Positions 31,320 through 32,846 of a stretch of 64,000 nucleotides of DNA are shown here, in pieces. The translations under genes and the position numbers were made by a program. How positions within the stretch are numbered: position 1 is the stretch's first letter; every line of letters starts with the position of its first letter. The stretch lies in the IMG/VR virus record IMGVR_UViG_2541047802_000007, one strand, 5' to 3'. The DNA comes from a virus (lineage: Duplodnaviria; Heunggongvirae; Uroviricota; Caudoviricetes). Under the pieces are notes generated by a model, which had not been told where the DNA came from, did not search any database, and was given only the letters and a program-made list of their open reading frames with translations.

Positions 31320-31338
31320 GGCGTGGCGGGGATACGAG
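31320..31338. other. Candidate cos (cohesive end) sequence
   Basis: ggcgtggcgggga resembles G-rich P2/186 cos as recalled from memory; placement after tum-like gene. Confidence 0.35.
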
Positions 31339-31436
31339 CGCGCGTATTTGGTCGTTACTTAGCTTTTTTTTATCAATAGATTAAGCTAACTTAAGTCTTT
31401 TTAGGAAAAAATATTTTTTCGTGATGAGGTAGAAAG

Positions 31437-32846
31437 ATGTCTTTTCTTGATATAAAAAAAATGAGTAAAGAGAGGTTTAATGCTTTTGTTGATTGGACCA
31501 GAATGCCAAATACTGAACTTTTAGGCTATGAGTTTGAGTGGTACTGTAGTCCGAGAGAGTTCCTGCTAGGGGCACTATTATTGGATCAAATCGATGAAGA
31601 TTATAGCGGTATTGTTTTAGCAAGAGACTTAAGTGGGAGATATAGATGTATTGACCTATTTACTAGTGTTTCAGAAATGAATTCTGCACGAGCAAAACTA
31701 AAGAAATTAATGCGGAAGCATACTAAATTAAACGTAAAAGTATTTCCACAAGGTGATGAAACTTATAAAGCAATGGATTTATTCACACCTATAGTTACAC
31801 CAGATAAACTTCATCATCATTTTTCATTATTTGGTAAATATGCGAACTGGTCGCCTGCAACAGGGATAATCAAGGAAATGATGAATCATTTTGAGGATGT
31901 CGACGGGAATTTTATAGAGCAGTTTCAGACAACAGGTTTTGATGCCCGGCTATGGGAGTTATATCTTTTCGCATATTTACGAGAGGAACACTTTTGGCTA
32001 GATAGGCAGTTTAATGCCCCTGATTATGTGGCACGTAAGTATGGTAATACTATTTGCATTGAAGCTGTAACGGTTAATCCAACAGGGAATGATATTAATC
32101 AATCATCTGAAATGCTATCTGAACCTAAAAGTAAGGAAGAATTGCTAGAGAAAATAGAGAATTATATGCCGATTAAATTTGGAAGTTCTCTCTATTCTAA
32201 ACTGAAAAAGAAAACTCGATACTGGGATCTAGAACATGTTAAGGGGAATCCTTTAATTTTCGCAATTGCTGATTTTCATGAACCAAACTCTATGATTTGG
32301 TCCCATAGTGCACTTTGGCAGTATCTTTATGGTATTCGCTATGAGCATGTTAAATCTGAAGATGGATGTTACAGTTTAGCAACTAAGAAAATTATATCGC
32401 ATCAATTTGAGAAAAAGGAAATTCCTTCAGGCTTTTTCTTCTTGGATGAGTCTGAAAATATTTCGGCCGTCCTTAGTTCTAATAGTGGTACTATATCGAA
32501 GTTTAATCGGATGGGAAAACTGGCTGGTTTTGGAAGAAGTGACCTTAGATTATTTAGGAGTGGTTACTGCCATGATCATGACCCAGAGGCATTATATCCA
32601 GCAGCATTTAGTTTTGAAGTGAAAGAAGGCGATATTACAGAAACATGGGCAGAAGGTTTAAATATGTATCATAATCCTAATGCTAAATATCCTGTAGATC
32701 CTGATTTATTTCCTTCAATAGCACATCATTTTCTTGAAAATGGAGAGGTTAAAAGTATAGTGCCTGACTTTCATCCGTATACATCTATTACCATAAATGT
32801 CTTAACTCAAAATAATAAAAAACAAAAAATCAGAGTAGATGAGTAA
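31437..32846 (+). CDS. AT-rich cargo protein of unknown function, 469 aa
   Basis: Long ORF in low-GC island between cos-like site and portal gene; no recognisable motif. Confidence 0.6.
   Translation: MSFLDIKKMSKERFNAFVDWTRMPNTELLGYEFEWYCSPREFLLGALLLDQIDEDYSGIVLARDLSGRYRCIDLFTSVSEMNSARAKLKKLMRKHTKLNVKVFPQGDETYKAMDLFTPIVTPDKLHHHFSLFGKYANWSPATGIIKEMMNHFEDVDGNFIEQFQTTGFDARLWELYLFAYLREEHFWLDRQFNAPDYVARKYGNTICIEAVTVNPTGNDINQSSEMLSEPKSKEELLEKIENYMPIKFGSSLYSKLKKKTRYWDLEHVKGNPLIFAIADFHEPNSMIWSHSALWQYLYGIRYEHVKSEDGCYSLATKKIISHQFEKKEIPSGFFFLDESENISAVLSSNSGTISKFNRMGKLAGFGRSDLRLFRSGYCHDHDPEALYPAAFSFEVKEGDITETWAEGLNMYHNPNAKYPVDPDLFPSIAHHFLENGEVKSIVPDFHPYTSITINVLTQNNKKQKIRVDE

Follow-up and report, generated by a model that had tools for sequence, protein, structure and literature searches.

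Among the closest described systems is PD-T7-1, one of 21 systems obtained by functional selection (Vassallo et al. 2022, Nat Microbiol, PMC9519451). The tested PD-T7-1 is a single Escherichia coli gene, from ECOR46 (RCQ85672.1), and its clone included the native promoter. T7 served as the selecting phage, but protection is stronger against T-even phages than against T7, and adsorption is unaffected. A homologue from NILS69 protects against a Teseptimavirus and shrinks T7 plaques (PMC12409345), and in these sources (PMC9519451, PMC12409345) phage protection is shown for the ECOR46 and NILS69 proteins only. Reviews place PD-T7-1 with the single-gene PD-(D/E)xK systems of no known mechanism, and we found no mechanistic or structural paper on it in the literature searched. 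The second point of comparison is the hotspot of P2-like prophages, for which 1,650 arrangements were counted among 18,150 loci (Rousset et al. 2022, PMC9122126). Here we analysed a gene at this hotspot in a 64,000-nucleotide stretch of Caudoviricetes DNA (IMG/VR virus record IMGVR_UViG_2541047802_000007), referred to in its entirety as the window. The gene is as follows:

31437-32846, plus strand: PD-T7-1-family gene, 469 amino acids (aa), ATG start; RefSeq WP_000008839.1, labelled 'hypothetical protein'

We propose, with a probability of about 0.8, that it encodes a member of PD-T7-1 and is the only cargo gene between the cos site and the portal gene Q in a prophage of the P2/186 kind, and that the protein most likely functions by itself, as a nuclease of PD-(D/E)xK type that depends on Mg2+.

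The 469-aa protein matches the PADLOC profile of PD-T7-1 (PDLC04073) over its full length, with E = 1.3e-196 and 651.7 bits (aa 7-457 align with positions 2-449 of the 452 in the profile). The match to PD-T7-5 (PDLC04110) is weaker and covers aa 113-436 (E = 1.4e-56, 190 bits). In PHROGs the protein falls into PHROG 8571, an unnamed family, while Pfam and NCBIfam returned no family for it, nor for 47 homologues scanned individually; homologues of the protein also match the PD-T7-1 profile. Judged from these profile matches, the 469-aa protein almost certainly belongs to PD-T7-1, a family that counts more than 3,700 proteins at E < 1e-5 (90% clusters) and 2,991 clusters at 50% identity in the profile search. 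Both the family and the hotspot were already known: the family is found by a standard defence-annotation profile, and WP_000008839 is already entered as a 'hypothetical' hotspot occupant in Table S5A of Rousset et al. 2022. Like PD-T7-1 of ECOR46, the window gene is single, partnerless and of a kind carried by prophages and defence islands, and the two proteins differ in length (about 449 aa for ECOR46, 469 aa here). PD-T7-5 is homologous to the helical region, the nuclease-like core and the C-terminal region of the window protein (aa 113-436) and is without its N-terminal module of about 110 aa.

The protein was modelled with AlphaFold2 from 47 homologues (predicted local distance difference test score 87.2, predicted template modelling score 0.89), which divides it into three parts:

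31437-31766, plus strand: N-terminal alpha/beta module, aa 1-110 (beta-sheet 30-78 and helix 81-98 in the model)
31815-32336, plus strand: helical region and predicted PD-(D/E)xK-like core, aa 127-300 (candidate residues E174, P195-D196, E209(-A-V211) and K255)
32337-32804, plus strand: C-terminal beta-rich region, aa 301-456 (conserved K355, R358, E402, W404 and N413)

Across 143 representatives (50% clusters), D156, Q164, R171, E174, P195, D196, E209, K255, Y262 and W263 are 97-100% conserved, E174, P195, D196 and E209 reaching 99% and K255 100%. An E...PD...ExV pattern resembling PD-(D/E)xK is thus conserved throughout the family. E174 (first core helix), P195-D196 (just ahead of the second strand, 197-201) and E209 (third strand) occupy the canonical PD-(D/E)xK positions; the next helix bears the invariant K255, the prime candidate to substitute for the motif lysine. 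At the same place, around aa 171-219, the ECOR46 protein carries a weak PD-(D/E)xK signal: its discoverers list weak HHpred matches to restriction folds there (Hjc 80%, PDDEXK_5 55%; PMC9519451). Our own profile search of all PDB sequences gave no match up to E = 10, and a Foldseek search of the full model against the PDB gave nothing below E = 0.14. Stand-alone PD-(D/E)xK and structure-specific nucleases such as Gao_Upx and Hjc show no relation to the window protein at the sequence level, and differ from it in that the window protein has a putatively relocated motif lysine and N-terminal and C-terminal regions unique to its family. A cluster of histidines (H281, H381 and H431), considered as a second metal site, was rejected, being conserved in close homologues and not in the wider family.

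The first-pass annotation of this locus, made from the letters and reading frames of the window, had seen in the gene a single-gene defence system of unknown family and had found no recognisable catalytic motif. The single-gene defence part of that proposal stands; the family, given the full-length match to the published PD-T7-1, is not unknown, and the conserved pattern described above contradicts the statement on the motif.

The two ends of the protein behave differently within the family. The N-terminal module, homologous to that of other PD-T7-1-type proteins, is missing from PD-T7-5-type proteins (about 345-385 aa), and its homologue is found at the C-terminus of other members, among them P0212 (aa 377-477), P0213 (aa 360-458), P0235 (aa 393-486) and P0173. 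This module is therefore an accessory that is movable within the PD-T7-1/PD-T7-5 family. Foldseek matches to the WGR domain of PARP2 (probability 0.2-0.4), possibly to this module, were too weak to use. The C-terminal region has no recognisable fold and no match among the solved structures in the PDB search; because PD-T7-5-type proteins retain it, we place it in the minimal functional unit.

We then compared the locus of the window with that of five related prophages having the same flanks (L004-L008). The features concerned are listed below.

30581-30871: PHROG 698 protein, function unknown, upstream of cos
30810-31115: DinI-like protein (Pfam DinI, E = 1.3e-22), upstream of cos
31194-31344, no strand: conserved cos segment of ~150 bp (blastn against L004-L008, 88-99.6% identity)
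31320-31338, no strand: cos-like 19-nucleotide core GGCGTGGCGGGGATACGAG, aligned to the annotated cos of 186 and P2
31345-31436, plus strand: AT-rich region upstream of the gene, including GAGG at 31426-31429
31345-32905, plus strand: variable cargo module ('slot B', cos-to-Q), GC 0.34, defined by homology breaks against the five related prophages
32867-32889, no strand: hairpin of 10 bp that separates the converging stops of the gene and Q, inside the variable module
32894-32970, minus strand: swapped 3' end of the portal gene Q, defined by homology break and GC

The core GGCGTGGCGGGGATACGAG equals the annotated 19-nucleotide cos of phage 186 (GGCGTGGCGGGGAAAGCAT) at the first 13 positions and can also be aligned with the cos of P2 (GGCGAGGCGGGGAAAGCAC). 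The surrounding segment includes, at about 31251-31274 and downstream of the DinI-like gene, a GC-rich hairpin followed by TTTT. The PHROG 698 and DinI-like genes are present in all relatives examined and are therefore backbone, not cargo. Homology to the five relatives ends at 31344-31348 and is back at 32906-32970, within the last 4-25 codons of Q. Between these limits the window carries the PD-T7-1-family gene, and the relatives carry the following cos-to-Q cargo:

L004: PIN-domain protein
L005: ParA and SIR2
L006: ParA and a hypothetical protein
L007: TIGR04255 protein, a regulator and a hypothetical protein
L008: AAA ATPase of 2 kb

The five same-flank relatives hold five unrelated cargoes. 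A second slot lies between the DinI-like gene and cos (junction 31187-31194); it is empty in the window and occupied in L004, L005 and L006, where other cargo separates the cos segment from the DinI flank. The cos-proximal hotspot of P2-like prophages consists, hence, of two slots around a conserved cos segment of ~150 bp, of which one or both can be filled. Since homology returns only inside the end of Q, where GC is low, the hairpin and the end of Q move with the cargo: an exchange of the slot on the Q side takes along the hairpin and the terminal 4-25 codons of Q. Related portal sequence was found in 1,244 genomes and the PD-T7-1-family gene in 25. Together these observations support horizontal acquisition of the gene, as cargo of the hotspot near cos in a prophage of the P2/186 kind.

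The hotspot of P2 itself (old and tin; Rousset et al. 2022; Odegrip et al. 2006) is the same gpA-gpQ locus by cos, with AT-rich, swappable cargo, and it is there that P2 old and tin are placed (PMC9122126). In P2 and 186, the distance from the cos core to the stop of Q is only about 165-175 bp, too short for a gene on the Q side, which puts old and tin of necessity on the opposite flank of cos. The window prophage shows the reverse of P2, with the slot on the old/tin side empty and the cargo between cos and Q. The Old protein, an ATPase-Toprim nuclease, is unrelated to the 469-aa protein.

The open reading frame (ORF) at 31437-32846 is intact and preceded by a Shine-Dalgarno sequence (GAGG at 31426-31429, 7 nucleotides before the ATG). 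Its GC content is 0.35 (0.26 at third codon positions), compared with 0.53-0.57 for genes A, Q and P, and only 3.7% of equal-length windows within the 64 kb are as AT-rich. Besides the gene, the cargo module comprises nothing more than the region upstream of it, the hairpin and the final codons of Q: no other ORF of at least 50 aa occurs in it, apart from an internal one in an alternative frame, and a partner or antitoxin ORF was rejected, the intergenic gaps being just 92 and 47 nucleotides. The stop of the gene (32844-32846, plus strand) converges with that of Q (32894-32896, minus strand). The hairpin between them, TAACCACCTC-ATA-GAGGTGGTTA, has a minimum free energy of -18.9 kcal/mol (z = -2.65). 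It is not followed by a T-run and for that reason was not flagged in the terminator scan; it may act as a terminator. The last 100 nucleotides of Q have a GC content of 0.23, against 0.53 in the remainder of the gene. The first-pass annotation had described a long low-GC gene between a cos-like sequence and the portal gene, a hairpin shared with Q, and a position at which P2-like phages exchange defence genes. All three descriptions agree with the coordinates, the composition and the genome counts given here, and the survey of the locus showed an occupant that differs among related prophages and is not conserved in all of them.

The 1.8 kb surrounding the gene are 100% identical to E. coli S88, MS7163, N53 and BEN5202. 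In S88 the gene has the DinI-like gene on one side and the portal gene on the other, within a P2/186-like prophage whose gene set comprises integrase, CI, CII, Fil and Dam as well as replication gene A and the head genes Q-P-O-N-M-L. More distant homologues lie in varied surroundings: at 74% identity in a P2-like prophage of Erwinia, where the slot is the same, at 51% in a Klebsiella P4-like satellite, at 50% inside a type I restriction-modification locus of Burkholderia and at 48% in a variable island of Pseudomonas. An allele of 449 aa sits in a Yersinia Peduovirus, in the G-FI slot, with the tail-fibre genes on one side and the sheath gene on the other, and also in a lambdoid phage genome. 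No neighbour gene is shared across the six other contexts; the gene most likely works alone, in company typical of defence genes.

A survey of 5,426 complete E. coli genomes found the window allele in 25, including S88 and MS7163, always at 99.6% nucleotide identity or more, and the exact 469-aa protein occurs on at least 1,000 public contigs. The 449-aa allele was found in 201 of the same 5,426 genomes, where the DNA search returned no intermediate or more diverged alleles. It forms a protein cluster of 528 members, common in E. coli, and is also present in the lambdoid phage mEp460_ev081 and in Yersinia Peduoviruses. The published coordinates of the PD-T7-1 ORF (2183..3533 in Table S2; PMC9519451) correspond to 1350 nucleotides and 449 aa; judged by ORF length alone, the 449-aa allele is probably the tested protein, and RCQ85672.1 is not among the cluster members listed. 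The window protein scores 652 bits on the PD-T7-1 profile, the 449-aa allele about 520. By this length-based comparison only, the window gene would represent a divergent branch of PD-T7-1.

How the protein might act can be sketched as follows. When a competing phage infects the lysogen, the protein would cut nucleic acid, most likely DNA, and the host would be spared. The putative active site would combine E174 (first core helix), D196 (beginning of the second strand) and E209 (third strand), with K255, from the helix that follows, replacing the motif lysine; the N-terminal module of about 110 aa would most likely be an accessory with a regulatory role or one in sensing or target recognition. 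The window allele is likely active in phage defence, and the prediction of nuclease chemistry for the 469-aa protein is somewhat better than even. Several results weigh against our proposal: the position of the motif lysine is occupied by V211; the protein shares just 33% identity with the 449-aa E. coli allele that is taken, by its ORF length, as the validated one; a promoter scan of the plus strand upstream of the ATG found no consensus sigma-70 site; IS1 interrupts the gene in 2 of the 25 carriers (H47 and H48, strains 33-6 and 58-3, both broiler-chicken isolates); and the literature searched held no nuclease assay and no active-site mutant of PD-T7-1. A restriction-modification system was rejected, the module being without a methylase; the Dam gene of the prophage (27175-28092) is present in relatives whatever their cargo, and therefore belongs to the prophage backbone.

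The most probable alternative, though clearly less probable than the main reading, keeps the protein in the same family and makes it an abortive-infection effector: activated by infection, maybe through the N-terminal module, it would degrade nucleic acid of host and phage alike, with RNA or tRNA as a possible target, as for some PD-(D/E)xK CdiA-CT toxins, and the cell would die or arrest. Our library and profile searches gave no link to toxin families at the sequence level, and in the selection study 7 of the 11 putative DNase systems confer direct immunity (Vassallo et al. 2022, PMC9519451), both of which speak against it. We regard as unlikely a separate reading, in which the 469-aa clade is a functionally distinct branch of PD-T7-1, its movable module serving as infection sensor, its C-terminal region being a new fold, and a Hjc-like core with its lysine relocated to K255 cutting branched or otherwise phage-specific DNA structures instead of a sequence or a modification; such structure-specific cutting, if true, would account for the action of a system without methylase on T-even phages, whose DNA is modified, as well as on T7, whose DNA is not.

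A slightly smaller chance attaches to the possibility that the PD-(D/E)xK-like core is non-catalytic and binds or sequesters a phage component, or that the activity resides in the C-terminal region. The replacement of the canonical (D/E)xK lysine by valine and the weakness of the fold matches would fit this, as would the strong conservation, with no PDB match, of K355, R358, E402, W404 and N413 in the C-terminal region. Against it, about 143 diverse clusters show almost no variation at E174, D196 and E209 and none at K255, as is typical of an active site whose lysine has been relocated. Such relocations are known from other restriction-fold enzymes. Very improbable, finally, is a passenger gene that at present plays no part in defence, being a relic or of some other use to the prophage: the frameshifted replication gene A of the prophage, the IS1 insertions in two carrier genomes and the missing consensus promoter would suit it, against which stand an intact ORF that keeps all family-invariant residues and at least 99.6% identity across the 25 genomes, the number of public contigs bearing the exact protein, and the presence of the same gene in the same slot of the Erwinia prophage.

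In annotation, the label of WP_000008839.1 in extraintestinal pathogenic E. coli such as S88 and MS7163 can be changed from 'hypothetical protein' to 'PD-T7-1 family anti-phage protein'. The mechanism of PD-T7-1 being unpublished, E174, D196, E209 and K255, together with an N-terminal module that moves or is lost, offer concrete targets for mutants and truncations. The view of the P2 hotspot as two slots, the one on the Q side being exchanged with the final codons of Q, is what the locus comparison adds.

Besides the cargo gene, the prophage shows further features. Its replication endonuclease gene A is split into two frames of 695 aa (28089-30176) and 118 aa (30173-30529) and is noted as 'frameshifted' in S88; in relatives the gene is intact, with 2415-2427 bp. 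The prophage is thus probably replication-defective, yet it retains its defence cargo. Rousset et al. 2022 cloned the 'putative HEPN' gene of another P2-type hotspot of S88 as pFR103; its identity with the window gene was rejected, the pFR103 sequence being absent from the window.

Just outside the prophage integrase, beside a second prophage remnant, a defence cluster occupies 16324-23382:

16324-18273: DUF262 type IV methyl-directed restriction enzyme (PADLOC mREase_IV, E = 0)
19232-20038: PD-T4-3 GIY-YIG protein (E = 8.6e-137)
20630-21418: restriction-endonuclease-domain protein
22159-23382: protein of 407 aa without match

The PD-T7-1-family gene would be one further defence in a prophage region that already holds several, which bears on host range in phage therapy for lineages such as those of S88 and MS7163. 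On the minus strand at 41712-43412, between the virion-morphogenesis gene (the equivalent of P2 S) and baseplate gene V, at the site of P2 orf30, lies an AT-rich gene of the AIPR family (566 aa; PADLOC AbiU, E = 1.7e-24), which is a second defence-type cargo gene of the same prophage.
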